Source: a virus | Virus record (IMG/VR): IMGVR_UViG_3300005825_000044 | Span: 35,962 to 99,961 of that record | DNA length: 64,000 bases | Reading direction: 5' to 3' (one strand) | Part shown: piece by piece, positions 41,787-62,847 of the stretch | How positions within the stretch are numbered: position 1 is the stretch's first letter | How the letters are laid out: every line of letters begins with the position of its first letter | Program-made: the position numbers and the translations under genes | The notes under the pieces: generated by a model | Databases searched by the model: none | The model's input: the letters and a program-made list of their open reading frames with translations, nothing else | What the model was told of the DNA's origin: nothing

Positions 41787-42316
41787 CGCAGAGCGCTCCC
41801 TCGAAGCTCTCGAAGCTCCGACATCCTGCCGGCGACCTCGAGCGCGAACGACCCGCCGCTCTCGTAGTGCGTGAGCACGCGGTCGCGGTAGTCGTGGAAG
41901 AAGCACTCCGCAGTGATCACCGGCCACGCCTTTCCGTCGGTGAAGACGACCCCGTACTCGGCAGTGAACCGGTAGAACAGCGGCCCGCCCTCTTCGCCGA
42001 ACCCGCGCGCGTCGCAGGCGCCGCGCTCGAACCACACCGCGATCGCAGTGAGCGCGATCGAGAGGTCCTCGAACTCGTAGACGTACGGCAGATCATTCTC
42101 GGACAGCGCGGGCGCGTCCGGCTCCTCCGCGACCTCTCCCCGGGCCTCGAGCCACAACCGCTCGGCCGTCTCCGGAGTCGGCGGTGCATCCACGTCCTCG
42201 CCCCGAAACACGAGCACAGCTGTGGCTGCTTCAGAGATCGCGAGACCGCGGTCTCCGCTCGCCCGCAGCACGAGCGCGAACGCGGCTGCCCACACCCTCT
42301 TCTCGTCCGTCGTCAT
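41783..42316 (-). CDS. Hypothetical protein, probably leaderless
   Basis: ATG 5 nt after the class-2 motif; no SD. Confidence 0.6.
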   Translation of the reverse strand: MTTDEKRVWAAAFALVLRASGDRGLAISEAATAVLVFRGEDVDAPPTPETAERLWLEARGEVAEEPDAPALSENDLPYVYEFEDLSIALTAIAVWFERGACDARGFGEEGGPLFYRFTAEYGVVFTDGKAWPVITAECFFHDYRDRVLTHYESGGSFALEVAGRMSELRELRGSALR

Positions 42317-42321
42317 GCCGT

Positions 42322-42350
42322 AACCCTTACCACTCGAGCTGCGAGCGCGG
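42322..42350 (-). promoter_or_regulatory. Class-2 promoter-like motif CCGCGC-N13-GGTAAGGGTT
   Basis: Positions counted by hand; ATG follows after 5 nt. Confidence 0.7.
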
Positions 42351-42355
42351 CCCCT

Positions 42356-43048
42356 CTACGGGGGTTCGGGCACCGTGTCCCCTCGAGGGGACACGGCCGC
42401 GACCACCTCGGGCCAGCGCAGATCGGGCAGCAGACCGGGGCGCTCCGAGTCCTCCGTGTAGACCCCGTTACCGTCGGTGACGAGGCACCTCGACGGGCCG
42501 CGGAGCCACCACCGCGGGTCGACCCCGTGCTCCCGGAAGTCGGCCCTCGTCAGGAAGCCCCGGGCCCGGAGCACGGCGCAGAGCTTCACGGCCGCGACCT
42601 TCCACCGCGTGACGAGCCGCGGCCCCGGCACACCGGCAGGGACCTCCACGGGCCGCTCCGGGACCCAGGCCGGCTCCGGGTGCTGCCACACCCTGGCGCG
42701 CGACAGTGCCCACCGAGGGCCTCCCCCGGGCAGCAGCACCGCGATCCCGGCCGCGCGAGCCACCGCGCTGAGCTGGTAGTTGGGCACCGGGATCAGCACG
42801 GCGTGCCGGGCCGGGCCTGGTTGCTTCTCCGGGGGCTGCAGCGCCTGGCAGAGGACCTCGAGCCCGGCCCGGAGCTTGGCCTGGACGCCGGCCTGGGTGC
42901 CGTCGGTGTCGACCAGCAGGACGTCCCAGCCCGACGTCTCGGGGTGCACGACGTAGCCGTCTGCCCGGGCGTGCGCGATCAGGTCAGCGCAGAGGTCGGC
43001 CTCGCTGCCCTGCCACTTCTCGAACCGCGGCCTCCTGCGTCGCGCCAC
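42356..43048 (-). CDS. PD-(D/E)XK-like nuclease with C-terminal wHTH-like region
   Basis: SE...C...G......E..GWDVLL.......GVQAKL; the call is tentative. Confidence 0.5.
   Translation of the reverse strand: MARRRRPRFEKWQGSEADLCADLIAHARADGYVVHPETSGWDVLLVDTDGTQAGVQAKLRAGLEVLCQALQPPEKQPGPARHAVLIPVPNYQLSAVARAAGIAVLLPGGGPRWALSRARVWQHPEPAWVPERPVEVPAGVPGPRLVTRWKVAAVKLCAVLRARGFLTRADFREHGVDPRWWLRGPSRCLVTDGNGVYTEDSERPGLLPDLRWPEVVAAVSPRGDTVPEPP
42375..42394. repeat. Palindrome family copy 7 (GTGTCCCCTCGAGGGGACAC, symmetric variant)
   Basis: Both half-sites carry the T-to-C change, so it is still a perfect palindrome; in the last codons of 42356..43048. Confidence 0.95.
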
Positions 43049-43187
43049 CGCCAGAGGCTACCACTGGTTCGCCATCTATGATCCGGCGCACCTCCGCGCG
43101 AAGCTCCGCGTCGGTCGGCTCTCGCCCGAGCCGGTCGCACAACCGGTCCCAGATCGTGAAGTGACTGGAACTCGCGTATCGGATCAT
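42984..43187 (-). CDS. Small hypothetical protein
   Basis: TIWDRLCDRLGREPTDAELRAEVRRII; ATGA overlap. Confidence 0.45.
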   Translation of the reverse strand: MIRYASSSHFTIWDRLCDRLGREPTDAELRAEVRRIIDGEPVVASGGGATQEAAVREVAGQRGRPLR

Positions 43188-43630
43188 GAGCACGCCTCGA
43201 CCGCGAACCGCAGCGCGGCGCGCGCCATGCCCTCAGCGCCCGGTTCGTTCCAGGCGCGGTTCAGACCGCTGGGGTGCGGCAGCGACACGAGCACGCGCTC
43301 GCCGGCAGCGACCGAGCAGAACGGGGCGACCGCGTCGACGCGCGCTGCCCCGCACACCGCGACGGTGACCTTCCGACCGAGCATCACGAGCACGCCGCTC
43401 GGCCGCTCCTCGAGGATGGCGCGCGCGTTCCTACGCGCGGCCGCCGCGGACCACCGCTCGCCGACGACGAGGTTCATCCGGTCGAAGCGCTCCAGGTACT
43501 CGTCCTCGGTCATCCCGAGTCTCATCATCAGTCGGTGGCCGCTGGCGCGCTTCGGCCACGGCAGCAGCGCGTCGTCCTGGTAGTAGCTGTACGGGTTGTG
43601 CTCCCCGATCAGGAGCGGCAGCGCCGTCAC
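43184..43630 (-). CDS. Uracil-DNA glycosylase-like superfamily protein
   Basis: LLIGEHNP...SGHRL...N....VMLGRKV...LPHPSGLNR.WN. Confidence 0.75.
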   Translation of the reverse strand: MTALPLLIGEHNPYSYYQDDALLPWPKRASGHRLMMRLGMTEDEYLERFDRMNLVVGERWSAAAARRNARAILEERPSGVLVMLGRKVTVAVCGAARVDAVAPFCSVAAGERVLVSLPHPSGLNRAWNEPGAEGMARAALRFAVEACS

Positions 43631-45396
43631 ACGCGCACCGGAAGGGCATCAGAGAACAGCTCCGGTGACGCCCGAAGCTCCGCACCGACGCTCTCCACAA
43701 GCTCGAGCGCGCGGAGCTTCCCGAGGTTGTTGGAGAACGTGCTGCTCCGCACGCTGACGCCAGCGGCTTTCCCGATCGTCTCGCGAGTGAGCGCGCCGGG
43801 GTACGCGTCGCAGAGCACGCGCAGCACGCGCCCGCCCGCCGAGTCACCGAACCGCGAGAGCCAGTATTCTCGCAGGCCGCTGCCCGTCGGCAGCGCCTCG
43901 TACTCACCGAGCGCTGCCTCGCCGGCCGCCGTGATCGAGATCCCCCTGCTGCCGACCTCCACCCAGCCGTTCGCGCGAGCGCGCCCGAGGTTGTTCGAGA
44001 ACGTGCTGCTCCGCACGCTGACGCCCGACCTCACGCCGATCTGCGTCCGCGTCAGCGGGGAGCGCTGGGCAAGCGCTGTCATGACGCGGCGGAGCGCGCC
44101 TCCGCCGACCATGAACGGAGTCACCGTAAGTGACACAGGACTCATGCGCGGCTCGACGTCGCGGCGCGCTACAGGGCCGACGCCGCCGACGGTCCTGTGC
44201 AGCAGTCCGGGTACCTCAGCGACCGGGACGGTGCCACCTCGCTTGAGCAGGCGGAGATCGCCGAGCATGCTTGCGAGCTTGTCACGCTCGCCCACCAGGT
44301 CAGCCTGAAGACAGGCGACGCCGGCGTGCGCGGTCTCGATCCTCCTGACCAGCTTCTCGATGCGACCCGCTACTGCCGCGAGGGCCTTCACGTCGACCAC
44401 GGGCTCCGCGGGGTCCGGCACCCTCTTCTCGAGCACGGTGACCTTCTTCCGCAGCCTCGCGACCTCTGCGCGGAGCACTGCCGGGTCATCGTCCTCGGCG
44501 CGCTTCACCGCGGCAGCCATCTCCTCGCGGAGCTTCGCGACGTCGATCTCAGACAGCGCGGCCTCCTGGTAGGCGCGCTCTCCGACGACGGGGGTCCTGG
44601 AGGTGTCCCGCGAGCGGATCGGCAGCACGCGTACCTGGCGCGAGACGTCGAGCCAGCTCGGGCTCCAGACGTAGGGGTTGCCGACCTCGAGCCGCGGTAG
44701 GACGTCGGAGAGCTTCTCGTCGGCGCCCTTCGTGGAGAGCCAGTACTGGAGCGCCTTGCGCTCGTGCGGGCCGGTGAGCTGGAACGCGAAGACGCACTCG
44801 CACTGGTTCAGCGCCTTCTTGTTGACCTCCTGCGGCCGCTGGCTGACGAAGCTGACGCCGATGCCGAGCGCGCGGCCCTGCTTCGCGACGCGGTGCCACT
44901 CGTGCAGCAGCTTCTCCTCGCCGCGCTGCGGCTCCTGCGGCACGACGTCCTGGGCCTCGTCGAGCACGATGTGGACAGCTGACCGCGACCGCCGCTTCCG
45001 CTCGAAGAACCGTCGGCCGAACGCGGTCAGGAACCGGGTCCGCTCCGCGTCGGTCATCAGGCTGACGTCGAGCACTGCGGAGACCCCGCGCTCCACAGCG
45101 AGCGACGCCACGAACTCGCCGGCGTCGGGCTCGAGCGGGAGGTCACCGTAGAGACCGCCGAGCACGTAGACCGGGAACGGCTTCTCGCCGAGCCGGAGCC
45201 CAGCCCAGACGCCCATCGTGTCGACCACCACTACCTGGACGCCGGCGTCGAGCATCTGCTCGACGAAGCGCTTGGCGCCGTACGTCTTGCCTGACCCGGT
45301 GCGACCGAACCACGCAATCTTCTGCGTCGCGGCGTTCGGCGGCAGCGTGAGGTCGTCTGCGACCGCGTAGCCCCGAAGCGTCGTCTTCCTCGCCAT
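43627..45396 (-). CDS. HerA/FtsK-like ATPase with tandem C-terminal winged helices
   Basis: Walker A FGRTGSGKT, Walker B IVLDEAQ, SQRP motif; two VSVRSSTFSNNLG wHTH repeats. Confidence 0.88.
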   Translation of the reverse strand: MARKTTLRGYAVADDLTLPPNAATQKIAWFGRTGSGKTYGAKRFVEQMLDAGVQVVVVDTMGVWAGLRLGEKPFPVYVLGGLYGDLPLEPDAGEFVASLAVERGVSAVLDVSLMTDAERTRFLTAFGRRFFERKRRSRSAVHIVLDEAQDVVPQEPQRGEEKLLHEWHRVAKQGRALGIGVSFVSQRPQEVNKKALNQCECVFAFQLTGPHERKALQYWLSTKGADEKLSDVLPRLEVGNPYVWSPSWLDVSRQVRVLPIRSRDTSRTPVVGERAYQEAALSEIDVAKLREEMAAAVKRAEDDDPAVLRAEVARLRKKVTVLEKRVPDPAEPVVDVKALAAVAGRIEKLVRRIETAHAGVACLQADLVGERDKLASMLGDLRLLKRGGTVPVAEVPGLLHRTVGGVGPVARRDVEPRMSPVSLTVTPFMVGGGALRRVMTALAQRSPLTRTQIGVRSGVSVRSSTFSNNLGRARANGWVEVGSRGISITAAGEAALGEYEALPTGSGLREYWLSRFGDSAGGRVLRVLCDAYPGALTRETIGKAAGVSVRSSTFSNNLGKLRALELVESVGAELRASPELFSDALPVRV

Positions 45397-45408
45397 ACAG
45401 GCCTCCCG

Positions 45409-45505
45409 AAAAGAAACAGGCCCGCGCCCACCCGTTAGGTAGGGGGCACCGCGCACCGACCGTAGTGCCGGGCTCGGGCCCCGCGCGCGCCGCGGACGCG
45501 GGCCT
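45409..45505 (-). ncRNA. Candidate structured RNA or attenuator (about 97 nt) before the ATPase gene
   Basis: 14-bp closing stem AGGCCCGCGUCCGC/GUGGGCGCGGGCCU with two G-U pairs, inner stem GGCAC...GUGCC, then GUUUCUUUU; starts 5 nt after GGTATAGGTT. Confidence 0.5.
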
Positions 45506-45510
45506 ACCCG

Positions 45511-45520
45511 AACCTATACC
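45511..45520 (-). promoter_or_regulatory. Class-2 -10-like element GGTATAGGTT (upstream element degenerate, CCACTC)
   Basis: Matches GGTANNGGTT. Confidence 0.55.
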
Positions 45521-45834
45521 GCGGGCGGGGCCGGAGTGGCCGGCAGCCTGTAGTACCGCCGCGACTGACCGGAGCGTCGCCGCCAGACGTTGCTGCCGGT
45601 CTCGCCCTTCTCCTCGATGACGCTGGCCCGAGACAGCGTGCGGCCGCACAGCGCGCCGCACCTCTCGTGGTAGGCGAGCGCGGTCTTGACCACCCTGTAC
45701 TCGAGACCGGTGAGGTCCATCACGTCACCGACGTACAGCTCCTCACCACGGCCGAAGCACTCCAGCACAACGCGCCTGGCATCGTGCCGGAGCAGGCGCC
45801 GTACCGGTACGGCCCGAGCCGAGACTCGGCTCAC
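45514..45834 (-). CDS. Winged-helix-like protein
   Basis: LYVGDVMDLTGLEYRVVKTALAYH..CG.L...RRYYRL. Confidence 0.55.
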   Translation of the reverse strand: MSRVSARAVPVRRLLRHDARRVVLECFGRGEELYVGDVMDLTGLEYRVVKTALAYHERCGALCGRTLSRASVIEEKGETGSNVWRRRSGQSRRYYRLPATPAPPAV

Positions 45835-46220
45835 GGCTCGGCTCCCGTGGTCATCATCTGCGTGCGGATCCCGAGAGCAGAGCGCATGCCGGGGTATTCA
45901 GCGTTCGCCGCTTCGGTCTCCTGAAACTGAAAGTCGATCGGTAGCCCGGTCTGCGACGCGAGCAGTGCGGAGTACGCGAGGCACGACACCTCCCAGCGAG
46001 CGTGCATGAACGGCTTCCCCGGGTCCGCCCCGGGGAACATGCCGTCCCAGTCCGCACGCGAGAGCAGCACGCGCACGTCGACGTCCCGGAAGTCAGGCCG
46101 GAGAAGACACGAGCCGACGAGGTACACGTGAGCGTCGTAGGCGCGGCTCAGCGGCTCGCACGCGAGGTCGAGCCTCATCAGGCTCGGTCGGTTCAGGAAC
46201 GAATACCGACGCTCGCTCAC
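45831..46220 (-). CDS. Minimal pol-beta-type nucleotidyltransferase
   Basis: VYLVGSCL..DFRDVDVRVLL (GS...DxD)...GLPIDFQ. Confidence 0.8.
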   Translation of the reverse strand: MSERRYSFLNRPSLMRLDLACEPLSRAYDAHVYLVGSCLLRPDFRDVDVRVLLSRADWDGMFPGADPGKPFMHARWEVSCLAYSALLASQTGLPIDFQFQETEAANAEYPGMRSALGIRTQMMTTGAEP

Positions 46221-46702
46221 GGTTTTGCATCCCCCGCCGTTCGCGGTTCCCGGTCCTCAACCACGGCGCGCTCGCACTCGTCAAGCTCTGCACCCCACCC
46301 GCTGAATATGAAGCAGGGCTCGCGCCCAGTCAGGTTGCGGTAAGCGCGGCGGACAGCCTCGCGCATCGGCAAGTCGTCACCGGGGAGCAGGTCGCTCTCT
46401 TCAGCCTCGCCGATCTTGCAGCTCCAGATCTTCTTTTTCACCGCAGGCTTCCCGTCGCGGTCAAGCCGCGCACACCACGGGCACTCCCCGCGCTCATGCC
46501 GCTCCGCGTGCCTCAGCCACGGCTCGATCCACACAGCGGCGCCAGAGTAACCGCGCGGCTGAATAGCGATGCCGCCAGCATCGAAGCGCTCACCGTTGTC
46601 TAGGACGAGCGTGCCGTCGCCTAACACGAGAGCGATACGATTCTGGATGCTGCTGCAATGCCCGCTTCCGTTGACCACTATCACGATGTCACCAAGTCTC
46701 AC
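46217..46702 (-). CDS. Hypothetical protein
   Basis: GTGA overlap; ends GDAKP. Confidence 0.55.
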   Translation of the reverse strand: MRLGDIVIVVNGSGHCSSIQNRIALVLGDGTLVLDNGERFDAGGIAIQPRGYSGAAVWIEPWLRHAERHERGECPWCARLDRDGKPAVKKKIWSCKIGEAEESDLLPGDDLPMREAVRRAYRNLTGREPCFIFSGWGAELDECERAVVEDREPRTAGDAKP

Positions 46703-47118
46703 GGCTTTGCATCCCTCGCCGGCAGCGTCGCCGAGCGCAATGACGGCGACCACGCGCGCTCTTGCTCGCGGTCGCGCTCAGCCTTCTCTAACCACAGCCC
46801 GGTGACCGTCATCACCGCGCCGAACACCGCGAACGCGATCACACCGGCACGGATGCGCTCCCGCGTCGGCGGCCTCGGCGGGCGCGTGAGGTAGCGCACT
46901 GCGGGTGATGCCGAGCACCGCACGCACAACGTGTCCTTCGCGGTGAGCAGCCCGCAGACGCAGCGATACAGCGTGATCGGCTGCATCGGCTTTGCGGGCT
47001 CGCGCATCCGCGGAGATGCGGGCTCAACCTCCGCGACGTGCTCCGCGCGCTCGAGCGCTGCTGCGACTGACTCGGGCGGTGCCGATGTGAAGCGGCGTAT
47101 CGGGAGTGCGGCGTTCAT
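46699..47118 (-). CDS. Membrane protein with Zn-ribbon
   Basis: CVCG...CVRC plus transmembrane segment AGVIAFAVFGAVMTVTGLW; ends RDAKP. Confidence 0.55.
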   Translation of the reverse strand: MNAALPIRRFTSAPPESVAAALERAEHVAEVEPASPRMREPAKPMQPITLYRCVCGLLTAKDTLCVRCSASPAVRYLTRPPRPPTRERIRAGVIAFAVFGAVMTVTGLWLEKAERDREQERAWSPSLRSATLPARDAKP

Positions 47119-47573
47119 TTGTCCACGATCCTCGCAGCGTCCTGAAGCGTAGGCCCCCTGGTCCTGTCCGCCTTCGCACGGCGAAGCTTGCCGACGAACT
47201 CCCAGCCCGCGTCGGTGAGGCGAAATACAGGAAGCAGCCCGGTACCCAACCACTCCAGCAGACCCGCCGCGACCAAGTCGTTGACGCAGTCCCAGTCGTC
47301 GTGTCCGTACAGCTCGGTACCGTCAGCCAAGTGGGTCGGGAAGTCACCCGGAGGCAGTGGCAAAGCACCGTCTCGTCCCGACACACTCCCGCGACGCGGG
47401 CGTCCCTTGCAGGTGCGCATCTGAGCCGCGACCGGCACACCGCCGTAGTCCACGCACCGAGTCTCGATGTAGAGCATCGTCGACTCGTGGTCGCGTCCCC
47501 ACACCTCCTTCGGCAGCGTCGCGCCGTTGTAAAAAAGCTTCTTCGCTTTCTGTCTCTTCGCTCTCGCAGTCAC
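47115..47573 (-). CDS. Hypothetical protein
   Basis: GTGA overlap; GHDDWDC..DLVAAG.L...FRLT..G. Confidence 0.6.
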   Translation of the reverse strand: MTARAKRQKAKKLFYNGATLPKEVWGRDHESTMLYIETRCVDYGGVPVAAQMRTCKGRPRRGSVSGRDGALPLPPGDFPTHLADGTELYGHDDWDCVNDLVAAGLLEWLGTGLLPVFRLTDAGWEFVGKLRRAKADRTRGPTLQDAARIVDK

Positions 47574-49057
47574 ACGCACCTCGCCTTCGGACACCGGATG
47601 AACCTCAACGAGCACCCACCGACGCAGCGCACCCGCACGTAACCCTTGCGCAGCGCACGCCGCAGAGCGCGACCGGGAGAGCGCCACTGCGTTGCGCGAC
47701 CCCTCGTGGGATCCCGCAGCTCGCCGCGCATGAACGCGTCGACGCGCGCGACGACCTCGAGGCACACACCGGCGTCCCACTCCCCGGGGTAGCCGTCGGG
47801 CTCCGCGCAACTCGAGTCGAGGTAGCGGAGCCACGGCCTGTGGACCTGCGCATCGCTGAATCGCCACACCATCGCGTCAGCTGCGCCGATGATGTCGGTT
47901 CCGTGCGAGTCCGCGTAGCGCTGCAGCACGTGACCAGACGCAGCGTGCGAGCGCAGCGCGCGGGGGCCGACCTCTGCCCACCACACGCGCAGCAGCTCGT
48001 CGCGCTCCGCGAGAACGCCCTCGACCGCGACCCCATGCGATGCGCGGTCGAGGGCTGCCCAACTTGTTACCCGAAGTACCGCATGATCGATCTCCTCTGT
48101 TTGTGCCGGCTGGCTAGGCGAAATAGGCCCGTCTCTCCGGGCTGTCACCCACGCACTGTAGCCACCAGACCGGGTTTGACTGGCGGTTAGGCTCGCCTCG
48201 TTCGGCGGAACGACCGCCGACGAGCCATGCTCTTGTTGCGTCGACTCAGCCAACGCGGAGTTAGATGCCGGTCTTTCCCGGCTGTCATCGGTTCCCGTCG
48301 CTACCAGCCGAGAATCGCTCAGCCAATGCGGGGGTGTGGCGTGTGTGCTTGACCGAGGCTCAGCGCTTGTACCCTGGCCACTTGGGTCTGCCGCGTAGTC
48401 GGACTTATCGGCAGAGATGTCGCGTTTTTTTTGGGTCCTGGCTAGACCAGTCTCCGACGACATGAACACGGAGTTATGTGCACGGATTACGCGCCGTGCC
48501 GCGACGTCAGGTAGGTTCCTAGCTTCCCTTGGGACTTCCCAGTAGAGCTGGCAGGGGGAAGGGTCCGTATCACCGAACCCGTCGCCTGACGTACCGACGG
48601 CGGAGTTGGATGCCCGGCTCGACGCTGTAGAGGCGCCGCCGGGCGGACCTTCGCTCGATGCTCCGCGCCGCAAGACGTGGCGAGCCAAAGCCGAAGATGG
48701 TGCACGGATTACGCGCCGTGCCGCGTTCGGTTGTTGGACGTGGGCGTGTTCCCTTTGTGGTCGCGACCACTGCCGACCGTGGCTGACGTCTCGGCCTCGG
48801 GCCGCCGGAGCGGTTTGACGGTCTCCAACAAACGAAGTCTCTTGCGCGCTGGCAGTGCAGGCGCGGAATGCGATCCAGGCCAAGCCTGACAGTACGAGCA
48901 CCACAAGCAAGAAGCAGAGCGTTTGCAGCATCGCGTCACTCCTCCCGCTCCGATACGCTGCGGCCACGTCATCGCAGGACGCCTTGCGGAGACATCGAGG
49001 ATGACGCGATTGCGCCGGCGAGCGGCAGCCAAGGCAACGCTCCGGTTCGCGCATCAC
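47570..49057 (-). CDS. SleB-like cell-wall hydrolase with signal/TM segment and long disordered linker (internal SD+ATG at 48931)
   Basis: C-terminal WAEVG...RDPTRGRATQW resembles Hydrolase_2; MLQTLCFLLVVLVLSGLAWIAF...ASAQE is signal-like; the central ~280 codons have atypical usage. Confidence 0.45.
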   Translation of the reverse strand: MMREPERCLGCRSPAQSRHPRCLRKASCDDVAAAYRSGRSDAMLQTLCFLLVVLVLSGLAWIAFRACTASAQETSFVGDRQTAPAARGRDVSHGRQWSRPQREHAHVQQPNAARRVIRAPSSALARHVLRRGASSEGPPGGASTASSRASNSAVGTSGDGFGDTDPSPCQLYWEVPREARNLPDVAARRVIRAHNSVFMSSETGLARTQKKRDISADKSDYAADPSGQGTSAEPRSSTHATPPHWLSDSRLVATGTDDSRERPASNSALAESTQQEHGSSAVVPPNEASLTASQTRSGGYSAWVTARRDGPISPSQPAQTEEIDHAVLRVTSWAALDRASHGVAVEGVLAERDELLRVWWAEVGPRALRSHAASGHVLQRYADSHGTDIIGAADAMVWRFSDAQVHRPWLRYLDSSCAEPDGYPGEWDAGVCLEVVARVDAFMRGELRDPTRGRATQWRSPGRALRRALRKGYVRVRCVGGCSLRFIRCPKARCV

Positions 49058-49344
49058 TTGCCGACCTTTCTGCGCTCTGCCTCACGAAGCGCGGCCACTC
49101 CACCAAGCCGCTGTCCATCGGTCATCTGGACGTATGCAGCGCTCTCGCGACCGTGCCCACAGCACGCGTTCGCAACGCCGCTCAAGAGACCGATGCATGC
49201 GTCGGCGCCGTCTTTACGGTTCGGCAGGCCGCAGTGCCCGCAGCGCCTGCACGGATCATCCGATACCAGCCGCCCGTCGTCGTATCGCCATGCGCCGCGC
49301 ACGAACGACATTGGATGCCCGCGGTGGAAGCCTCTCGGCATCAC
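49054..49344 (-). CDS. Cys-rich hypothetical protein
   Basis: C..CG.P...DGADACIG.L.GV.NACCGHG; start may extend to GTG 49455. Confidence 0.6.
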   Translation of the reverse strand: MMPRGFHRGHPMSFVRGAWRYDDGRLVSDDPCRRCGHCGLPNRKDGADACIGLLSGVANACCGHGRESAAYVQMTDGQRLGGVAALREAERRKVGK

Positions 49345-49451
49345 GCAGCCCTCGCGATCGAGTCGCACAGCAGGTACGCGGACGCCAGCACCAGCGCGAC
49401 GTAGAACATCGCGGTCAGCGGGGAGAGCGGGGGAGGGGGGTAGGTGGCGGG

Positions 49452-55132: not shown

Positions 55133-55272
55133 CAGGAGACCACGCGGGAAAGAAGACGGGGTACCCCCGGAGATGGGCGGCTCAGACCGGACCGTGACGA
55201 GTGTCGCCCCGGTAGGTGGAGCGGGCCTTCCGAAAGGCACCCCGCACTGGAACACGTACCGGCCCGACGCGC

Positions 55273-55599
55273 TCAGCGGTCACCGAAGTGCGGGTCGTAG
55301 CAGCGCTCGCCGCTGAGCGTGAGCCACTCCTCGACCTCGTGCTCCAGCACTGCCATGACGACAGCCTTCACGGCATCCGCGATCGACTCCCTGTCGAACA
55401 GGTCGCGGAAGCGCGTCTGCTCGGACACCACGTCGATCGTGCGGTGCGTCGGGTCGCGGGCGTCCGCGCACCTCATCACGACGCGTACCCTGACGTCACC
55501 GCCAGGATCCGGCATCGTGGTCAGGTCGATCCGCTCGATCCGGAGACCGCGCAGCGACGCGACCCACGGCTGCGACGTGTGGTCGTCGATGCGGATCAC
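55273..55599 (-). CDS. Hypothetical protein
   Basis: AVLEHEVEEWL..SG.R.YDPH motif, recalled from other high-GC phages. Confidence 0.6.
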   Translation of the reverse strand: MIRIDDHTSQPWVASLRGLRIERIDLTTMPDPGGDVRVRVVMRCADARDPTHRTIDVVSEQTRFRDLFDRESIADAVKAVVMAVLEHEVEEWLTLSGERCYDPHFGDR

Positions 55600-55714
55600 A
55601 GGTCCACCTACTCTGCGTGCTCCAGAGCGCGCTCCGCCAGCGACCTGACCCGATAGAGCGCGTCGGACCAGTTGCGGGGGTCGTGCGCACCAGCAGCAGC
55701 AGTCTCATCGCGGG

Positions 55715-58306
55715 CTAGCCGATCGTGGACACCGAGACGCCGCCGCCCGTGGCGATGCCGTGCACCCGAGCGTGGAGTCGCCGAGCGACCTCGCGGGCTA
55801 TCCAGCTCGCCATCAGCACGTCGCCGCTGTGCTGGTCCGGCATGTAGTCGATGCCCTCGGCCTCCCAGAGCCGCAGCGCCTCGTAGGCCTCCTCGAGCGC
55901 GGGGTCCGCGGTCGGTGCCGCGGGGATGACCCAGCGCCCGGTCTCTAGCTCGGCCGCGAGCGTGGCGAGCCCGAAGCGGGGATCCGTCTTGTTCTTGCCG
56001 GTGTTGAACGGGACGATCGGTGCCAGCGTGAGGCTGTTCTCCGACGCGAGGTCGACGAGGTGCTGCTGGATACCGTTGCTCTCGACCGCGATGATCCCAC
56101 CGAAGCACGCCGCCGCAGTCATGATGCGGAAGATCAGGTCAGGTCCGCGCCAGTTGCCGGCGCTGACGTGCAGCGGCTGCCGCTTACCGCTGGGGTGCAC
56201 CAGCAGCACGAAGATCGCCGACTTGCCGTTCGTGCGGCGCTTGCCGCCGAGGTCGACGCCGGTGACCACGACGCAGCCCTCCGGGATCTCGTCGAGCCTC
56301 TTGATCAGCGCGACGTCGTGGCGACGACACGCGTCGTACCACTGCGGCTGGAAGGTGCGGTTCGCCTGGTCAGTCGCCACCAGTTCGAAGAACCGGAGGA
56401 ACTCCTCCACCGTCATCTCAGCGCGAGCCGTCGCGAGCCGTGCCTCGTTCCACTGCTTGGTGTGGATGCTGCCGTCCGGGTCTCGGATCGGGCGGTTCAG
56501 CTCGTGCCAGCCCCGCTTCACCAGCTCGACGTCGAGCGCTCGGGGGTGCCACGGGTTCGTCGCGAACACCTTGACCGCGCCGTCGGTCATGCGGCGCAGC
56601 GGGGTCTGCCGGAACCAGCTCGAGGCTGCGCTGCGCTGCACCTCGGTCTGCGTGTTCTCGAAGTCCAGGAAGTCGTCCGCGAATAGACCGTCGCAGCGGG
56701 AGCCCTGCACCGCGCCGTGGTAGCCGACGGCCTGCAGCGAGGGGTCTCTGCTGTAGACGGTGCGGCGCACCGTGATCCGGTTCTCCTGCCACACCGGGCC
56801 CGGCACGAGGTCGGGGAACACCTCATGCAGTGCGGCGCTCTCCTCGACGTACTTCTTGACGACGCGGACCGTCTTCTTCGCGCCCTCCATCTCGTTGCCG
56901 AGCGCGACGAAGCGCTTCCACGGCGCGTTGCCGAGGTCGAACAGGATGCGGCCCACGATCTGCGTGCTGTTGTGCGTGACGGTGTACGCCCTACCGGCGA
57001 GGTAAGTGTGGTCGGGCGAGTCGACGGTTATGCACTTCGCGGGGCACGACGGAATCTCATCGATGCCGACCACCGACTTGAACCTGTGACGACCGCCGAC
57101 GCGGGACGCGTCACCGAGTCTCTGCCGCTCGAGCTTGCGGGGAAGCTTGAACACAGGGACCCGCGCGGTGAACGTGACCCTCCACCGCCGGCCCACAACC
57201 CGACCGTCGATCACAGCATCAGACTCCTTCATGCTCGCCTTGAGACCGAGCCCGCGTGCGAGTTGAAGGAAGTCCCGTGCCAGCCGCGGCGAGCAGGAGC
57301 AGTACTCGACACGCGAGCTACCTCCCGACGGTCCGTTGCTGACCGAGCCGTCTGTATCAAGCAACCCGGCGAGAAGCTCGAACCGGTCACTAACCGACGC
57401 GTGCAGATACTCAGGAGGGATGTGCTTCTCGTTCGGCCACAGCACCTCCAGCTCGCGCAGTACAGCCCTCACCTCGCCCCAGCTCGCGCCGAGGGTCCCG
57501 TTCATAATACCGGGCCTCCACGAGTAAGACCGAGCCTCCCTACCCCCAACGAACTGCACGCAGCGGTCCCAGATGAAGCGGTCCTTCTCGTGAAACGTAA
57601 TCCTCGAGTCCCTGCTGTTACCGTCACCGAGCCAAACGCCCAGCACGTACGGCGGCAGCACAAGAGCGGGGCCGGCGTCCATGACGGGGCCGCACACCGG
57701 TACGTGCCACTTCCACTTCAGGTCAGAGGTGCGAAGACCGCGCCGCAGCATCTCGTCGGTGCTCACGACTCGCTCCGAGCCGCCGCAGTACGTGGCGGTC
57801 CAGAGGTGGTCTCCATCCGCGTCAAGCCATGACCCGTCGTCGAACCGGACCCTGAACATCCTGCCCATCTCGATACGGCTCACCGCCGTGACGCTGCACG
57901 GAGCCCCGTCACGCCCGAACACGACGTCGCCGACGCGCACAGCTCCCATGCGCTTCCACCCACCGACGACTGGAATCTCGGTATCGACGGAGAGCCGCTT
58001 GCCGCTCTCCGGGTGGCTCCTGACGACGACGCCGCGGGCGCCGTGCCGGTCCACAGCGTGCTGCAGCCGCACGTGGAACGGCTCCTGCCGGACGGGGTCG
58101 CCCTTCTCGTCACGGATCACGTGCTCCACGAACGCGTTGACGTCGGTGCGGCAGTACTGGAAGTACAGCGCTCGTGCCCGCTCCCCGGCGCTCCGGATGC
58201 CAGCGGCCTCGAGGTCGACGCCCTCAGCGTCGGGGGCAGCTACCTCGGCAGTCGCGGCGGCCCGGTCCGGAGCGTGTCCCCTCAAGGAGACACGCTTACG
58301 AGCCAT
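55715..58306 (-). CDS. terL: Terminase large subunit with intein
   Basis: Spliced Walker A RSHPESGK/STQ, Walker B LFADD, nuclease VTGVDLGG...IAVESNG...DVLMASWIA; about 520 aa after splicing. Confidence 0.93.
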   Translation of the reverse strand: MARKRVSLRGHAPDRAAATAEVAAPDAEGVDLEAAGIRSAGERARALYFQYCRTDVNAFVEHVIRDEKGDPVRQEPFHVRLQHAVDRHGARGVVVRSHPESGKRLSVDTEIPVVGGWKRMGAVRVGDVVFGRDGAPCSVTAVSRIEMGRMFRVRFDDGSWLDADGDHLWTATYCGGSERVVSTDEMLRRGLRTSDLKWKWHVPVCGPVMDAGPALVLPPYVLGVWLGDGNSRDSRITFHEKDRFIWDRCVQFVGGREARSYSWRPGIMNGTLGASWGEVRAVLRELEVLWPNEKHIPPEYLHASVSDRFELLAGLLDTDGSVSNGPSGGSSRVEYCSCSPRLARDFLQLARGLGLKASMKESDAVIDGRVVGRRWRVTFTARVPVFKLPRKLERQRLGDASRVGGRHRFKSVVGIDEIPSCPAKCITVDSPDHTYLAGRAYTVTHNSTQIVGRILFDLGNAPWKRFVALGNEMEGAKKTVRVVKKYVEESAALHEVFPDLVPGPVWQENRITVRRTVYSRDPSLQAVGYHGAVQGSRCDGLFADDFLDFENTQTEVQRSAASSWFRQTPLRRMTDGAVKVFATNPWHPRALDVELVKRGWHELNRPIRDPDGSIHTKQWNEARLATARAEMTVEEFLRFFELVATDQANRTFQPQWYDACRRHDVALIKRLDEIPEGCVVVTGVDLGGKRRTNGKSAIFVLLVHPSGKRQPLHVSAGNWRGPDLIFRIMTAAACFGGIIAVESNGIQQHLVDLASENSLTLAPIVPFNTGKNKTDPRFGLATLAAELETGRWVIPAAPTADPALEEAYEALRLWEAEGIDYMPDQHSGDVLMASWIAREVARRLHARVHGIATGGGVSVSTIG
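56969..57997 (-). mobile_element. Class-3 intein with LAGLIDADG homing endonuclease (343 aa)
   Basis: Block A RLSVDTEIP..GWKRMG.V.VGD.VFG.DG.PC.V, block B DADGDHLW, LGVWLGDG and LAGLLDTDG, block F KCITVDSPDHTYLAG, block G TVTHN followed by Ser. Confidence 0.93.
58274..58293. repeat. Palindrome family copy 12 (GTGTCCCCTCAAGGAGACAC)
   Basis: 18/20 match; at the terS/terL junction. Confidence 0.85.
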
Positions 58307-59096
58307 CGCCGTCGCCCTGGTCTACCTCCACAACGTCGACGAGCAGCGCGGCCCGAGCACGGGCCCGCTTCACCATCTCGGCGGCCTCCTCGATCCAGAT
58401 CATCGACCGCTCGGTGGAGAGCTGCTCGCCGTCGTCGGCACCCTCCGGAGGCGCGATCGGGGCGCCCATGATGACGCGCTCGGTGTGCACGGAGAGCTTG
58501 CTGGCCTCGTTGCTGAACCTCGTCACTGTGGCGATCTGCCGGAGCAGCGCGATGCTCTCCTTCACGCTCACGCTTGGGTCGTCGGCCCGCAGCTCGAGCT
58601 GCCGCCGTACCCGCTCGCTGAGCTTCATCGCGCCCTGGAGCATGCTCGCCGTGGCGAGACCCAGCGCGAGCGCGTTGCGACGCGCGGCCTGGGCGACGCG
58701 GCCCTCCTCGGCCATCGTCTCTGCGCGGTCGCGCTCCAGCGCGAGCCTCCGCTTCTCCCGGTCCATCAGCACCGCGATGTGCTTCACCTGGGCGGGGTCG
58801 TCGGGGCTCGGGCCCATCGCCCGGAGCGCGCGGGCCTCGCGCCGCAGCTCGAGCACGGTCTCCTTGATCGGCGGCCGCGTGCCGTCGCCGAGGTGCCAGT
58901 ACTTGTGCGACGTCACCGGGGAGGCTCCGAGTGCCTTCGCGACGACCTGCGGCTGCCCGGGCCGCTGCGCGAACGCCTCGACCCAGACCGACCACTCGTC
59001 GTCGGTCAGAGCGTTCGGCCGCGGCCTGCCGAGCTTCTTGCCCTTCCGGTTCCCTGCCCTCTTCGAGACGCGCTGCTGACCGCCATCCGCTGCCAC
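58296..59096 (-). CDS. Putative terminase small subunit
   Basis: Overlaps the terL start; N-terminal GRPRP plus HTH-like segment, coiled-coil core. Call rests on position. Confidence 0.6.
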   Translation of the reverse strand: MAADGGQQRVSKRAGNRKGKKLGRPRPNALTDDEWSVWVEAFAQRPGQPQVVAKALGASPVTSHKYWHLGDGTRPPIKETVLELRREARALRAMGPSPDDPAQVKHIAVLMDREKRRLALERDRAETMAEEGRVAQAARRNALALGLATASMLQGAMKLSERVRRQLELRADDPSVSVKESIALLRQIATVTRFSNEASKLSVHTERVIMGAPIAPPEGADDGEQLSTERSMIWIEEAAEMVKRARARAALLVDVVEVDQGDGDGS

Positions 59097-59260
59097 GCGG
59101 AGCACCGTACCACGGTGCCGCGCCGGATTCATTTCGCACCGTGCTGGACCGCCAGCCCGCGCGGCCGGCACGCCCCGCGAGGACCGTCATCCACGCCGGG
59201 CGAAGGGGCCCTACTACCGACCGCGCGAGCACACGGTTAGTCGGGGAGTGTAGGGGAACC

Positions 59261-59313
59261 CGACGTCGCGTCCAGCTCTGCGATCAGCGCGTCGGCATAC
59301 CCGATCGAGCTTC
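59261..59313. repeat. 53-bp exact direct repeat, copy 1
   Basis: Identical to 59532-59584; intergenic upstream of terS. Confidence 0.95.
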
Positions 59314-59525
59314 GGCCGCCGGGTTATCGCGCAGCGCGAGATGGTGCGCGTGCTTTCCCCGGCCGGTCGCGAAAGTGGCGGTTTGCACGAATATACAAAG
59401 AAAATCTCCTTTCGGAACAAGGAGTTAGACCTGGGCGCAAACTTCGTTGAGTTCCGTGTGCCCGCCCCGCTGCCCAGCGAATCGACCGGCGCGCGCGGGC
59501 GAATCCCAAATCCGGCCACTACCGA

Positions 59526-59801
59526 CTAACTCGACGTCGCGTCCAGCTCTGCGATCAGCGCGTCGGCATACCCGATCGAGCTTCTGACCAGCGTGCGGTT
59601 CGCCTGGTCCGGGCTGAGCTTCGCGAGGTCTCGCATCGTCGCGGGGTTCGCGAGCGAGCCCTTCATCGCGGCAGTCGCGACGCGCTCTCTGCGGGCCTCG
59701 CGCTCCGCGTCGCAGGCCGCGTGGCTCCGTCCGTGAACGGAGCACATGACGGGTACGCCGCTGTGGAAGAGGTCGCTGTTCTTCTCTGAGCACTTCTTCA
59801 C
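59526..59801 (-). CDS. Hypothetical protein
   Basis: GTGA overlap. Confidence 0.5.
   Translation of the reverse strand: MKKCSEKNSDLFHSGVPVMCSVHGRSHAACDAEREARRERVATAAMKGSLANPATMRDLAKLSPDQANRTLVRSSIGYADALIAELDATSS
59532..59584. repeat. 53-bp exact direct repeat, copy 2
   Basis: Forms the 3' end of ORF 59526..59801. Confidence 0.95.
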
Positions 59802-60706
59802 CGCGGTCCTCCTTTGTCGACGACGACGTACCCCATGCGCCTGTAGAGCGCGGCGTAGTGCGCGGGGTCGCTGAAGAAGTGCTGACCCCGTTCCCTGACG
59901 TGCGGGCCGGGGTCGCCCTCGGGGTACGGCGCCCCGCTCTCGTCGTGCGAGAAGTCGGCCCTCCACGCGATCGAGAAGTGACGTCGGCCGCGGTCATCGG
60001 GCTCGGTGAAGAACTCGAACCGCACGGTCCGGCACGGGGTGCAGAGCTTCCAGTGGCCGGTGTTGCTGCGCACCTCGGAGACTCCGGTGTCGCCGCAGAG
60101 GTCGCACCTCGCCGGGCTGCGGTGAAAGAGGTCGCGCAGCGCGGCCTCTGCCTCGGCGTCCTTTCGGAGTGCCGTCACACCGAGGCCGCCGCGGTTGAAG
60201 GACAGGGTGCCGCCGGGAAAGAACTGCACCGACTCTTGCCCGACGGTGTAGTACAGCTCTCTCACCGTGACGGGGAACAGCACGCGGTCGCCGTCGCCGA
60301 TGGATACCGCGCGGACCCCCACGTTGGCGGTGCCGCGGTTGTCGAACCAGACTCGGTCCGCGTTCGTGACTGCGGGACCGTTCACGTCCCAGCCCAGCGC
60401 GGAGCGCTCGACCGGGAACCTCTCGTAGCCGGGGCACGCGACCTCGAAGCGGCTCTGCGGGTCGCCGGGCTCCGGCGCGTAGAGGTGCAGGGCGACGCTG
60501 AGGTGCGCGGGGTCCCGCGCCACGGTGCGGCGCTGCAGCGCGCTCATGAACGCGTCGCGGGCACCGTCGACCTGGGTGGCCCCGTGCCGGATGCCGGCGG
60601 CGCACTCCGCGACGATGCGCAGGAAGTTGACCTCGGCGCTCCGGAGGTCGTCATCCGCCCGGACCGCGTCGAGTTCCGACTCAGAAAGCACGGCGCACCC
60701 CCTCAC
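59798..60706 (-). CDS. Protein with divergent phage structural (fibre-subunit-like) domain
   Basis: VALH...P.PGD....EVA..GYER..V.R...GW......TN...V.F resembles a common small virion protein family. Confidence 0.45.
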   Translation of the reverse strand: MRGCAVLSESELDAVRADDDLRSAEVNFLRIVAECAAGIRHGATQVDGARDAFMSALQRRTVARDPAHLSVALHLYAPEPGDPQSRFEVACPGYERFPVERSALGWDVNGPAVTNADRVWFDNRGTANVGVRAVSIGDGDRVLFPVTVRELYYTVGQESVQFFPGGTLSFNRGGLGVTALRKDAEAEAALRDLFHRSPARCDLCGDTGVSEVRSNTGHWKLCTPCRTVRFEFFTEPDDRGRRHFSIAWRADFSHDESGAPYPEGDPGPHVRERGQHFFSDPAHYAALYRRMGYVVVDKGGPR

Positions 60707-60739
60707 CGCAGCGTCGCGGGTTCGAGCCTGGGCGCTCGG

Positions 60740-61402
60740 CTATTCCCGGCCATCGGCGACGTTCTCCCTGGCGATCACCCAAAGCTCCGCATACTGCTCA
60801 TCACCGATCAGGTCTTTCACCAGGCTCTTGAACTCCTCGAGTTCTTTGTCGACTACAGAGGAGCGATGCTGCGCCTTCAGTTCGGTGAGCCGAACCTGAA
60901 TCGCCTGCGAACGCATGCCGAGCTTCTGCATCCGCTCCTGCAGTCGGCCGAACTTTTCACGGTCCATGTACTTCCCACGGATCGCCGCTTGCTTCGTGGC
61001 TTCCCGAAGCTTCGCCCTCACCTCCTGCCTCTCGGTGTCCACGTCGTGCTTCTCCGCGATCAGGCCAGCACGCTCCTTGTCGGTAGCGGATCCAGAAGCG
61101 TCGAGTCGCGCGACGGTCTTCGCCACGTCCAGGTTCGCGCGCTGCTGGCGCTCCGCCTTCTCTGCGGACAGCAGCTCTGCCACTGCCGGGGTGTAGCGAC
61201 CGGGGGCGCCCTCTGTGATGCGGTACTCGACCCCGTAGCCTTCAAACGCCTTATGCACGCCGGCCTTGGTAAACGGCGCATCCAGAACCGGAAGGTCGAC
61301 CTCGGCTCCATCGTCTGCAAAGAGCACGATGGCGTTTGGCTTCGTCGGAAACACCATGATCCGAATCGGCAGCGTCGCCGGGTCGAGCTTGGGCGCGCTC
61401 AC
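60740..61402 (-). CDS. Coiled-coil hypothetical protein
   Basis: GTGA overlap; starts MSAPKLD. Confidence 0.6.
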   Translation of the reverse strand: MSAPKLDPATLPIRIMVFPTKPNAIVLFADDGAEVDLPVLDAPFTKAGVHKAFEGYGVEYRITEGAPGRYTPAVAELLSAEKAERQQRANLDVAKTVARLDASGSATDKERAGLIAEKHDVDTERQEVRAKLREATKQAAIRGKYMDREKFGRLQERMQKLGMRSQAIQVRLTELKAQHRSSVVDKELEEFKSLVKDLIGDEQYAELWVIARENVADGRE

Positions 61403-61689
61403 TTGCCCGGCTCCGTGAAGTCGACCACGCCGAGGCGGTCGGCGATGCGGCACATCTGATTCGAGCCCGTGTCGTAGAAACCGCGGCACACGATGGCCTC
61501 TCCGGCAATGGTCCCTTTGTGACACAGGAAGTAGGTGCCCTTTCGTTGGCACTCGCGCAGGAGGCTCGCTCGTCGCCTGTCGCTGACGATCTTGCCATCG
61601 GACATCAAGCATTCTGCGCAACGCTTGCTCATGACGCGCAGCCGGCCGTTCACGACGGCATTGGTCGAGTCGAGCTTGGGCGCGGTCAT
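61399..61689 (-). CDS. Cys-rich hypothetical protein
   Basis: CAEC...FLCHKGT...VCRGFY; starts MTAPKLD. Confidence 0.65.
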   Translation of the reverse strand: MTAPKLDSTNAVVNGRLRVMSKRCAECLMSDGKIVSDRRRASLLRECQRKGTYFLCHKGTIAGEAIVCRGFYDTGSNQMCRIADRLGVVDFTEPGK

Positions 61690-62561
61690 TCGGCCTCCGT
61701 CGCGCGCAGCTCGGCGGCGAGGTCGAAGATCGCATGCCACCTGTTGGATGCGATCGCATCCAGCAACTCCCTCACCTTCTCTGGCGGGTAGCCGGACTCG
61801 GCGGGCGCGTCCTCTCTGACAGCGTCGACGATGTCCTTCGGCACCGGCGGTGGGTTGCGGATCAACTCACCGAGCGCTTCCCATTCGGCCGCGTTGAGAT
61901 GACCGGCGACCCTCTCGCGCGCGTCCCCTTTGAGCACGCCGCAGATGTTGCGGAGCGCTTCACGGATGCTGACGAGCGCTTCGTCTGGCTCTTGGCCGCA
62001 GCTCGCCGCAATGAACTCTCGCGCGGCTTGGATCACTTCTGCTCGCTGTGTCATTCGGTCTCCTCCAGTACTCCTGCGGGCCGCCGCGATCTTCTTGCGC
62101 GCGACCGCGAGGTCCTCCGCTACCTGCCCCGGCCAACTCTCCCGCGCGGCGTGTCCCGGCAGCGGCTCGCCCATCACGAGGGGCCAGAGGTGGTCGGCGA
62201 GAGCCATGGCCTCCGTGTTCAGCGGGGCCCGGAGCGCGGCGTCCAGCAGCGCGCAGAGGACCTCCGCACCGGTGCCCGGTTCGAGGCACTCCCCGGCCAC
62301 GTGCCGGGCCGCGACCTCCCGGCAGTGCGCGCGGTAGACCTGCTCGCCCTTGCCCCGGAGAGGACCGTCAGGACGGCACCGCATGAACGCTGGACTGGAG
62401 CCCGGCCCGGTCGCCCCGGCCCGTTGCAGCTCGGTCTCCGCGATCTCAATCCTGCGGAGCGCGTCGGCGACCTCGGACCCGGCCCCATCGGGGAGCGCGC
62501 GGAACGCGTGATCGATCGAAGAGCCGTCTCGGAAGATCATCTCGGTCTGCTGCTCGCTCAT
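61686..62561 (-). CDS. Hypothetical protein, apparently two in-frame genes (internal SD+ATG near 62054)
   Basis: ...RRSTGGDRMTQR: GGAGGAG lies 5 nt before the internal ATG. Confidence 0.55.
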   Translation of the reverse strand: MSEQQTEMIFRDGSSIDHAFRALPDGAGSEVADALRRIEIAETELQRAGATGPGSSPAFMRCRPDGPLRGKGEQVYRAHCREVAARHVAGECLEPGTGAEVLCALLDAALRAPLNTEAMALADHLWPLVMGEPLPGHAARESWPGQVAEDLAVARKKIAAARRSTGGDRMTQRAEVIQAAREFIAASCGQEPDEALVSIREALRNICGVLKGDARERVAGHLNAAEWEALGELIRNPPPVPKDIVDAVREDAPAESGYPPEKVRELLDAIASNRWHAIFDLAAELRATEAE

Positions 62562-62812
62562 CTGACCACGCTCCTTGCAGGCTCGTAGGAGCCCGGACAC
62601 CACCTGCCGTGACCGAACCACCCGCCACCGTCGCCACGCGGCTCACTGCCAAGCTCGGACGGTGGGAGGTGCCGGTACGGCGCCACCAGACCGCTACGGG
62701 ACCGCGCAGGAACCCTTCCGTTGACGATGCGGCCGCACCGCGCGCAGACGCACCTGGTGTGCGCGGCAGACAGCGCTCTCTCCGTACCCTCACCGCCGCT
62801 GTCTGGTGCCAT
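62558..62812 (-). CDS. Zn-ribbon hypothetical protein, probably leaderless
   Basis: C.CARCG...WCPGS; ATG 6 nt after the class-2 motif. Confidence 0.55.
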   Translation of the reverse strand: MAPDSGGEGTERALSAAHTRCVCARCGRIVNGRVPARSRSGLVAPYRHLPPSELGSEPRGDGGGWFGHGRWCPGSYEPARSVVR

Positions 62813-62818
62813 CAAGTG

Positions 62819-62847
62819 AACCCTTACCAACACTGCCCGGCGCGCGG
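62819..62847 (-). promoter_or_regulatory. Class-2 promoter-like motif CCGCGC-N13-GGTAAGGGTT
   Basis: Intergenic; positions counted by hand. Confidence 0.7.

Follow-up and report, generated by a model that had tools for sequence, protein, structure and literature searches.

A bipartite motif abutting start codons as a candidate phage-specific promoter class in a high-GC virus record

The window analyzed here is a stretch of 64,000 nucleotides (nt) of the IMG/VR virus record IMGVR_UViG_3300005825_000044, corresponding to bases 35962-99961 of its 101,615 bp. The record has a GC content of 68%, and practically all of its genes lie on the minus strand. A bipartite motif, CCGCGS-N13-GGTANNGGTT, referred to here as class 2, recurs on that strand, mostly just upstream of genes. 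A first-pass annotation, made from the letters of the window, had read the two boxes as the -35 and -10 elements of middle promoters, recognized by the sigma factor of the phage and feeding leaderless genes. The motif statistics, geometry, gene context and sigma factor identities described below were obtained directly from the sequence, and on balance we lean towards interpreting the motif as a phage-specific promoter class.

The motif and the genes behind it

Ten copies of the downstream box are located at gene boundaries and were counted as good sites. They are listed below, in window positions unless genome positions are given, with offsets counted from the end of the box.

62847-62819, minus strand: site A, CCGCGC-N13-GGTAAGGGTT, followed at +6 by ATG 62812 of an open reading frame (ORF) of 84 amino acids (aa) with weak codon bias (62558-62812)
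54874-54846, minus strand: site B, CCGCAG-N13-GGTACAGGTT, followed after a 5-nt all-pyrimidine spacer by ATG 54840 (+5)
52968-52940, minus strand: site C, CCGCGG-N13-GGTATCGGTT, followed at +5 by ATG 52934 of a HicB gene with a helix-turn-helix (HTH) domain (52476-52934)
51102-51074, minus strand: site D, CCGCGC-N13-GGTAAGGGTT, within the last codons of the sigma factor gene P0001
45520-45511, minus strand: -10-type box GGTATAGGTT with CCACTC in the -35 slot
42350-42322, minus strand: site F, CCGCGC-N13-GGTAAGGGTT, followed at +5 by ATG 42316 of a 177-aa gene
18870-18861, minus strand: -10-type box GGTAGCGGTT with GGTGAA in the -35 slot
genome 18082-18073: -10-type box preceding a UvrD helicase gene
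genome 10779-10751: CCGCGT at N13, followed by an ATG at +5
genome 7336-7327: -10-type box followed by an ATG at +4

The four exact bipartite copies (sites A, C, D and F) lie where the first-pass annotation had placed them, each with an ATG 5-6 nt downstream (+5 at C, D and F, +6 at A), and the two window copies it had described as lacking the upstream box do lack it. All six -10 copies that it counted are present, but it missed site B (54855-54846), a fifth bipartite leaderless member, and a non-member at 25692-25683. The scan of the remaining genome that it had proposed yielded four more copies, at genome positions 32027, 18082, 10760 and 7336.

Four exact bipartite matches in the window compare with 0.01 expected, and none of 100 shuffles reached four, so the claim that the fixed 13-bp spacing exceeds chance holds. 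Two further copies are near-exact, carrying CCGCAG or CCGCGT at N13. GGTANNGGTT alone has eight matches in the window, all on the minus strand, against 0.28 expected from shuffles; the 101.6-kb genome as a whole has 12 copies, every one of them on the coding strand (binomial p about 2e-4 for 12 of 12 on one given strand). An ATG follows at +4 to +6 in seven of the 12 copies (binomial p about 7e-9), and six of these seven ATGs open real genes. CCGCGS is found at the fixed offset in at least four of the 12 (binomial p about 4e-8). Among the ten good sites, a CCGCGN-type box lies at exactly 13 nt in six, and a seventh site has CCGC one base further out.

Chance matches in a GC-rich sequence, or relics of a dispersed repeat, would account for two of the 12 copies, both of which were rejected as members: GGTACCGGTT at 25692-25683 (minus strand) belongs to a degenerate early cassette (TGGACG...), in which it represents the spacer in mutated form and aligns with GGGACCGGGTT of the intact cassettes, and the copy at genome 32027 is intragenic and probably fortuitous. 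One-mismatch variants of the -10 box are spread over the coding (26) and opposite (23) strands without a bias, as would be expected by chance. This also indicates that the box is strictly defined, and the class was therefore not widened to include such variants. As an account of the class as a whole, chance is effectively refuted by the shuffle expectations for the box and the bipartite motif, the 12:0 strand split and the ATG offset. Repeat remnants do not fit the spacers and flanks, which are unrelated to each other: their pairwise identity is 0.27 (spacers) and 0.28-0.31 (flanks), compared to 0.285 expected from base composition, and the boxes thus appear to be independently maintained rather than copies of a repeat. 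Both explanations are therefore regarded as very improbable.

Two possible weak members, each with one mismatch, were observed. One is CCGCTG-N13-GGTACGTGTT at 55279-55251 (minus strand), before a 126-aa gene, and the other is CGGACA-N13-GGTACGGGTG, with its box at 20026-20017 (minus strand), 5 nt 5' of GTG 20011.

The genes behind the good sites include the UvrD helicase gene with a second sigma gene behind it, an SbcD-like nuclease gene, an operon with a deoxyribosyltransferase-like gene and ThyX (headed by site F), a HerA-like ATPase gene, and the HicB-HTH gene followed by the in-window sigma gene; PolB is encoded nearby. One site lies at the entry of the portal cluster, where the box at 18870-18861 is 48 nt 5' of a 98-aa gene led by a Shine-Dalgarno (SD) sequence (ATG 18812), itself 5' of the portal gene (16592-18511). 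The gene at site B encodes 186 aa (54280-54840), belongs to PHROG 3193 and has good codon bias. Since the genes served are mainly related to replication and nucleotide metabolism, the "middle" label given by the first-pass annotation fits their content.

Geometry of the motif and leaderless starts

With the A of the ATG set to +1 as the putative start point, CCGCGS spans -34 to -29 and GGTANNGGTT spans -15 to -6, where GGTA occupies -15 to -12, GGTT occupies -9 to -6, and TA lies at -13/-12. The hexamer in this register is TANNGG in all copies, the two bases after it are invariably TT and the GG before it is also invariant. Class 2 therefore matches neither the TANNNT form of the -10 element at promoters of primary (group 1) sigma factors nor, with CCGCGS as its box, a TTGACA-like -35 element. 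A sigma70-consensus promoter was likewise not found in 14.5 kb of the class-2 region. The claim of -35 and -10 elements thus stands insofar as the motif is an oriented, bipartite, promoter-like class at gene boundaries with promoter geometry in silico.

For the 144 called genes, the preferred distance to the start is 6-7 nt for TANNNT (nine genes) and 7 nt for TANNGG (five genes), with other offsets almost unoccupied. Leaderless promoters in Deinococcus-Thermus have been shown experimentally to carry a -10 motif about 6-7 bp before the ORF (PMC12340547), and those of Mycobacterium tuberculosis carry TANNNT and purine starts (PMC3898074); the spacing found here equals the former and is compatible with the latter, and an SD sequence is missing in all three. 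At two class-2 sites the spacer to the ATG consists entirely of pyrimidines (ctccc and ctttc), so that the first purine at which transcription could begin after the box is the A of the ATG.

Judging from the encoded proteins, the motif-adjacent ATG appears to be the true N-terminus wherever this can be judged, except that it fails at 51068 (site D) and is weak at 62812 (site A). In the SbcD-like protein the alignment of the Metallophos domain begins with the very first residue, in the HicB protein the alignment begins at residue 12, which pairs with profile position 11, and five ORFs show strong third-position GC from the adjacent ATG onward. A usable SD sequence is absent at the motif-adjacent ATGs, in agreement with the first-pass annotation: anti-SD duplex energies over the upstream 20 nt range from -5.1 to -7.4 kcal/mol, compared to medians of -5.1 kcal/mol for random 20-mers and -7.8 kcal/mol for all genes, and the variable NN occupy the place where an SD core would sit.

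Sites B, C and F and the two ATG-adjacent sites outside the window would accordingly be most naturally read as giving leaderless expression, and site A more weakly so, which makes six candidate genes. The first-pass annotation had extended leaderless expression to all four of its bipartite sites, which is plausible for three but does not hold at site D, where the final A of the sigma gene's TGA stop doubles as the first base of ATG 51068. This ATG opens only 13 codons, and the real gene (50594-51034) starts 34 nt further on at GTG 51034, behind GGAGG. The 13-codon mini-ORF (51027-51068, minus strand) ends 4 nt past this SD-led GTG and may, as a leaderless upstream ORF, be coupled to initiation there.

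In total, four of the ten good sites feed leadered, SD-bearing genes; besides site D, the boxes at 45520, at 18870 and before UvrD would give SD-bearing leaders of about 10-115 nt. The leader behind 45511 is about 110 nt long and contains a hairpin and a U-tract, followed by an SD sequence and ATG 45396 of the HerA-like ATPase gene. The first-pass annotation had called it a structured RNA; the hairpin and U-tract are present, but the fold is not better than that of shuffled sequences (z = -1.3), and a search of Rfam returned no family in the window.

The proximity of the motif to start codons also raises an explanation at the RNA level, in which the motif would be a post-transcriptional start-associated sequence or a protein-binding site inside a longer mRNA. 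A precedent is found in Cluster K mycobacteriophages, in which the start-associated sequence and its ESAS form (SAS/ESAS), a 13-bp repeat with an AGGAG SD core, are thought to act in translation (PMC3203893). As with SAS/ESAS, class 2 is a short, oriented repeat that is found in larger intergenic gaps, close to where non-structural genes start, and an inverted repeat lies upstream of some copies (about a third to half in the case of SAS/ESAS). Five class-2 copies read TAAGGG, which is faintly SD-like, and a contig from an estuary metatranscriptome (run X1) crosses site C. In this run the phage was recovered at 99% identity or higher over most of window positions 42250-62249, as assembled contigs of low, flat depth that are silent on transcription starts and may derive from DNA carry-over. 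Unlike SAS/ESAS, class 2 has no SD core, as its variable positions and the random-level anti-SD pairing indicate, and it has a second box, whose rigid 13-nt distance and position exactly at -35 have no RNA-level role. Moreover, the distance to the next start codon is 39-114 nt for four copies, and the genes behind these have an SD sequence of their own. An RNA-level function is therefore considered improbable, and a promoter class is the preferred interpretation.

Sigma factors and candidate readers

The genome contains two genes with a Sigma70_r2 domain, P0001 inside the window and P0002 outside, in addition to a stand-alone sigma region 4 protein.

51068-52549, minus strand: P0001, RpoS/RpoD-like sigma factor with regions 1.2-4 and C-terminal extras
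genome 14614-15213, minus strand: P0002, extracytoplasmic function (ECF)-like sigma factor, recognized by its family profile
27828-28283, plus strand: stand-alone sigma region 4 protein (Pfam Sigma70_r4, E 1.5e-9) with the helix VTRERVRQIE

The first-pass annotation had assigned the motif to "the" phage-encoded sigma factor. Phage sigma factors are indeed encoded, but there are two of them, and the one within the window carries a TTGACA-type helix. P0001 aligns with RpoS, RpoD and SigA over regions 1.2-4 and has three predicted extra DNA-binding modules at its C-terminus. It retains YATWW in region 2.3 and reads KNHVRR at the specificity positions of RpoS regions 2.4/3.0, with Leu and Lys replacing His and Glu. 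Its region 4.2 helix is TRERIRQ, the canonical TTGACA-reading helix of sigma70. The database gene call starts at M30 (52462), 10 nt after the sequence GTAGACT (52479-52473), which belongs to another promoter-like class, class L, described below. Because the P0001 gene lies downstream of the class-2 sites B and C, P0001 looks more like a product of class 2 than its reader, and the latter role is unlikely.

P0002 is the candidate that we tentatively place first, albeit as a possibility short of a probable assignment. A word-indexed protein search found only P0002 itself, and about 35 remote relatives were collected. The full length of the family profile matches ECF sigma factors in the PDB (SigK, E 1.4e-18; also CnrH, RpoE and SigW), and the alignment reveals a sigma4-like tail, LPxxQA...RKAALRA, of which P0002 has a shortened version. 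The single-sequence structure model was poor; the alignment-based model has a confident sigma2 domain, and its Foldseek matches to sigma factors are weak. P0002 directly follows the intein-bearing UvrD helicase gene in one operon, downstream of an early cassette (described below), and a class-2 -10 box precedes this operon. ECF sigma factors are typically autoregulated. The next genes encode a 338-aa zinc-ribbon protein (genome 13601-14617, minus strand) and PolB. The order UvrD, sigma factor, partner protein (36% identical) and PolB is retained in a distant contig (L043), and the zinc-ribbon partner could be an anti-sigma factor or a co-activator. ECF promoters normally have an AAC-containing -35 element, a spacer of 16-17 nt and a CGT-containing -10 element. 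The rigid spacing of class 2 is ECF-like, and its GGTA and GGTT resemble the (C/G)GTN cores of the ECF -10 consensus, but it has neither the AAC nor a spacer of that length.

The register of TA in class 2 is what a sigma factor of groups 1-3 would use. Promoters read by the host machinery also need to be weighed, either through an alternative sigma factor or through the primary sigma factor redirected by a phage activator at CCGCGS, a sigma appropriation like that by MotA and AsiA of phage T4. The box at the -35 position is unlike anything that either phage sigma factor should read, several phage HTH proteins and the stand-alone region 4 protein could remodel the host holoenzyme, and the host was not identified by the searches. 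GGTA also resembles the GGGTA(T/C) -10 element of SigB/SigF-type sigma factors, whose promoter consensus is GTTT-N12-15-GGGTAT; however, class 2 has no GTTT in the -35 slot, and a G precedes GGTA in only four of the 12 copies. On the other side, two sigma genes and three promoter-like classes are most simply explained as one class per sigma factor, and TANNGG does not have the T at the last position that the primary sigma factor needs. Since this T is absent, a phage-encoded sigma factor would most likely be needed instead of the host primary one. Overall, host machinery with or without a phage activator is a somewhat doubtful reader of class 2.

A recognition mode used by no characterized sigma factor is a long shot. 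It may consist of an ECF-like phage sigma factor acting on the tandem GGTA/GGTT together with a -35 box of G and C only, or of P0001 reading CCGCGS through an extra C-terminal DNA-binding module and not through region 4.2.

Searches for relatives placed this phage as an orphan among the sequences compared. A near-identity DNA search yielded no match among cultured phages, and the portal protein is at most about 33-43% identical to any sequence compared. Scans of IMG/VR contigs gave one match to the phage sigma factor (28% identical), two portal-encoding fragments (43% identical) with the motif in neither, and no match to a 20-bp palindrome found near the motif (see below). Three contigs matched the full motif plus ATG, with a single, chance-compatible match each. 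No close homologue of P0001 or P0002 was detected among 5.8 billion proteins searched, and distant relatives of P0002 were found on short contigs or on a contig of 56% GC without the motif. Since motif-bearing relatives were not found, comparative footprinting was impossible. Searches with the portal protein and ThyX for the host gave mixed taxa; the best ThyX match (63% identical) is on a 4-kb contig binned as Gaiellaceae. Two DNA runs sharing a few words with the phage gave mostly chimeric partial matches, uninformative on habitat. A scan of 36.5 kb outside the window found no tRNA genes, and a suspected resemblance of P0160 to ASCH proteins was dropped as it had no Pfam match.

Several of these results weigh against a phage-specific promoter class read by a phage sigma factor. 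The CCGC box is not in place at four of the ten good sites, including the one before the P0002 operon, and the motif was found in no relative among the scans made, which leaves it without comparative support. The metatranscriptome contig, which like all contigs carries no read ends, bridges site C. With respect to the readers, TRERIRQ leads one to expect a TTGACA-like -35 element, and P0001 is therefore unlikely to be a usual reader of CCGCGS. Region 4 of P0002 is short and divergent, and class 2 differs from ECF promoters in having no AAC in its -35 box and a spacer of unmatched length. Furthermore, the host and its set of sigma factors are not fixed by the portal and ThyX matches.

Companion promoter classes, known systems and implications

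Class 2 is one of three promoter-like classes in this genome, which from their sequences and gene context appear to be sorted roughly into early, middle and late. The features of the other two within the window are as follows.

27818, 24635, 22555, 21644 and 20351, minus strand: TGGACA starts of early cassettes
25725-25683, minus strand: degenerate early cassette
43061-43055, 14814-14808, 10334-10328, 9663-9657, 52479-52473 and 3125-3120, coding strand: class-L boxes, with more outside the window

An early cassette consists of an AT-rich tract, TGGACA, a conserved 17-nt spacer, TATAGT and a shared leader. Eight near-identical copies are present in the genome, heading runs of small genes. The spurious GGTANNGGTT match at 25692 is explained by the similarity between the class-2 box and GGGACCGGGTT, the spacer of intact cassettes. 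The stand-alone region 4 protein has a C-terminal Cys cluster, is the sole convincing plus-strand gene of the window and is a candidate decoy, repressor or shut-off factor for TGGACA-type early promoters. A host-type, promoter-like sequence, TGGACG-N16-TACACT, was also observed at 59274-59247 (minus strand) in a 393-nt gap, which lies upstream of a 278-aa gene and the intein-bearing terminase gene.

Class L reads GTA(G/C)NCT. It is found chiefly in the structural module, separated by 6-7 nt from a downstream ATG or GTG. It has 8-9 copies on the coding strand, four of which read CGGTGTAGNCT, and none on the opposite strand; a -35 box is not visible. The TA of class L and the TA of class 2 are equidistant from the start codon.

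A 20-bp palindrome, GTGTCTCCTCGAGGAGACAC, accompanies both leaderless classes and has 12 copies in the window. It is found 2-29 nt upstream of promoter boxes of both classes (52973-52992, 42375-42394, 52482-52501 and 10364-10383 in the window, and about 10790-10810 in the genome). Three class-2 sites lie 4-24 nt downstream of it, including site C (4 nt from 52973-52992) and site F (24 nt from the variant at 42375-42394). The palindrome could be an operator or a terminator hairpin at the end of the unit before it. The sigma gene contains it twice, translated as VSPRGDT.

From these features we infer promoter function, a start point, timing and a pairing of sigma factors with classes. CCGCGS would act as a -35-position box and GGTANNGGTT as a -10-region box, and RNA polymerase would begin transcription with the A of the ATG that follows GGTANNGGTT after 4-6 nt. 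Six genes would thereby obtain leaderless mRNAs, and the four other sites would yield mRNAs with a leader and an SD sequence. As a middle class, class 2 would mainly drive the replication and nucleotide metabolism operons, in addition to the HicB-HTH gene with its neighboring sigma gene and the entry to the portal cluster. In the proposed circuit, the host sigma factor would read the TGGACA-N17-TATAGT early cassettes, ECF-like P0002 made early would read class 2, and class 2 would express P0001 as the reader of the late class GTA(G/C)NCT.

By analogy, the gene order would best fit a cascade like that of Bacillus phage SPO1, in which host sigma A serves early, gp28 middle and gp33/gp34 late promoters (PMC13401047). 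Shared features are a large lytic-type phage, host-type early promoters, two phage sigma genes, two phage-specific promoter-like classes, a rough sorting of classes by gene function, and a second sigma gene behind promoters of the preceding class. On the other hand, the sigma factors here are orphans unrelated to those of SPO1; P0002 is ECF-like, and P0001 is RpoS/RpoD-like with additional DNA-binding modules at its C-terminus. The boxes also differ in sequence, many leaderless transcripts are predicted, and this phage is known from sequence alone. A second parallel is gp36 of coliphage phiEco32, a small, two-domain, ECF-like sigma factor that recognizes bipartite, phage-specific middle/late promoters through its sigma2-like and sigma4-like domains (PMC12276001). 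In both phages a partner protein is encoded, here the conserved zinc-ribbon protein after P0002, although no close sequence relation is detectable, the motif is different, no gp79-like factor was identified, and the host here is high-GC and tolerates leaderless mRNAs.

Compared to the leaderless host-type promoters of Deinococcus-Thermus and M. tuberculosis, class L with its TAGNCT is an exact fit, and the TA of class 2 keeps to this register. Those promoters generally have no -35 element, whereas class 2 has TANNGG-TT with an invariant GG and a CCGCGN box at six sites. Sevostyanova in 2007, as cited in PMC12340547, reportedly described start-abutting, leaderless middle and late promoters in Thermus phage phiYS40. 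Middle promoters of phage T4 combine a MotA box with a TAnnnT -10 box of sigma70, with the participation of AsiA. In T4 as in the present phage, the place of the -35 element is taken by a phage-specific box whose distance to the -10 box is rigid, and the genes that follow are of the replication type. The T4 -10 box is, however, normal and read by host sigma70, in contrast to the non-canonical -10 box and own sigma factors of the present phage.

Phage sigma factors with their own promoter class are textbook knowledge, and start-abutting leaderless phage promoters have been described in Thermus phages. What is new here is the sequence of the boxes (TANNGG-TT, which breaks the TANNNT rule, and a -35 box of G and C only), the occurrence of two leaderless classes in one register, and the unusual set of sigma factors. 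As the general idea is well documented, the value of the finding lies in the particular specificity and not in the principle. If the interpretation is correct, the TANNGG-TT box would extend the knowledge of -10 recognition, and the rigid 29-bp promoter with its cognate sigma factor would offer an orthogonal part for gene expression in high-GC bacteria. Should the reading mode be one that has not been characterized, it would represent a new form of promoter recognition coupled to obligate leaderless expression. With the promoter classes confirmed, this singleton phage would possess a compact, fully self-encoded, three-tier program, composed of host-type early cassettes and two sigma factors each with its own promoter class, that runs in a high-GC, leaderless-translating host lineage in which the control of phage transcription is almost unstudied.

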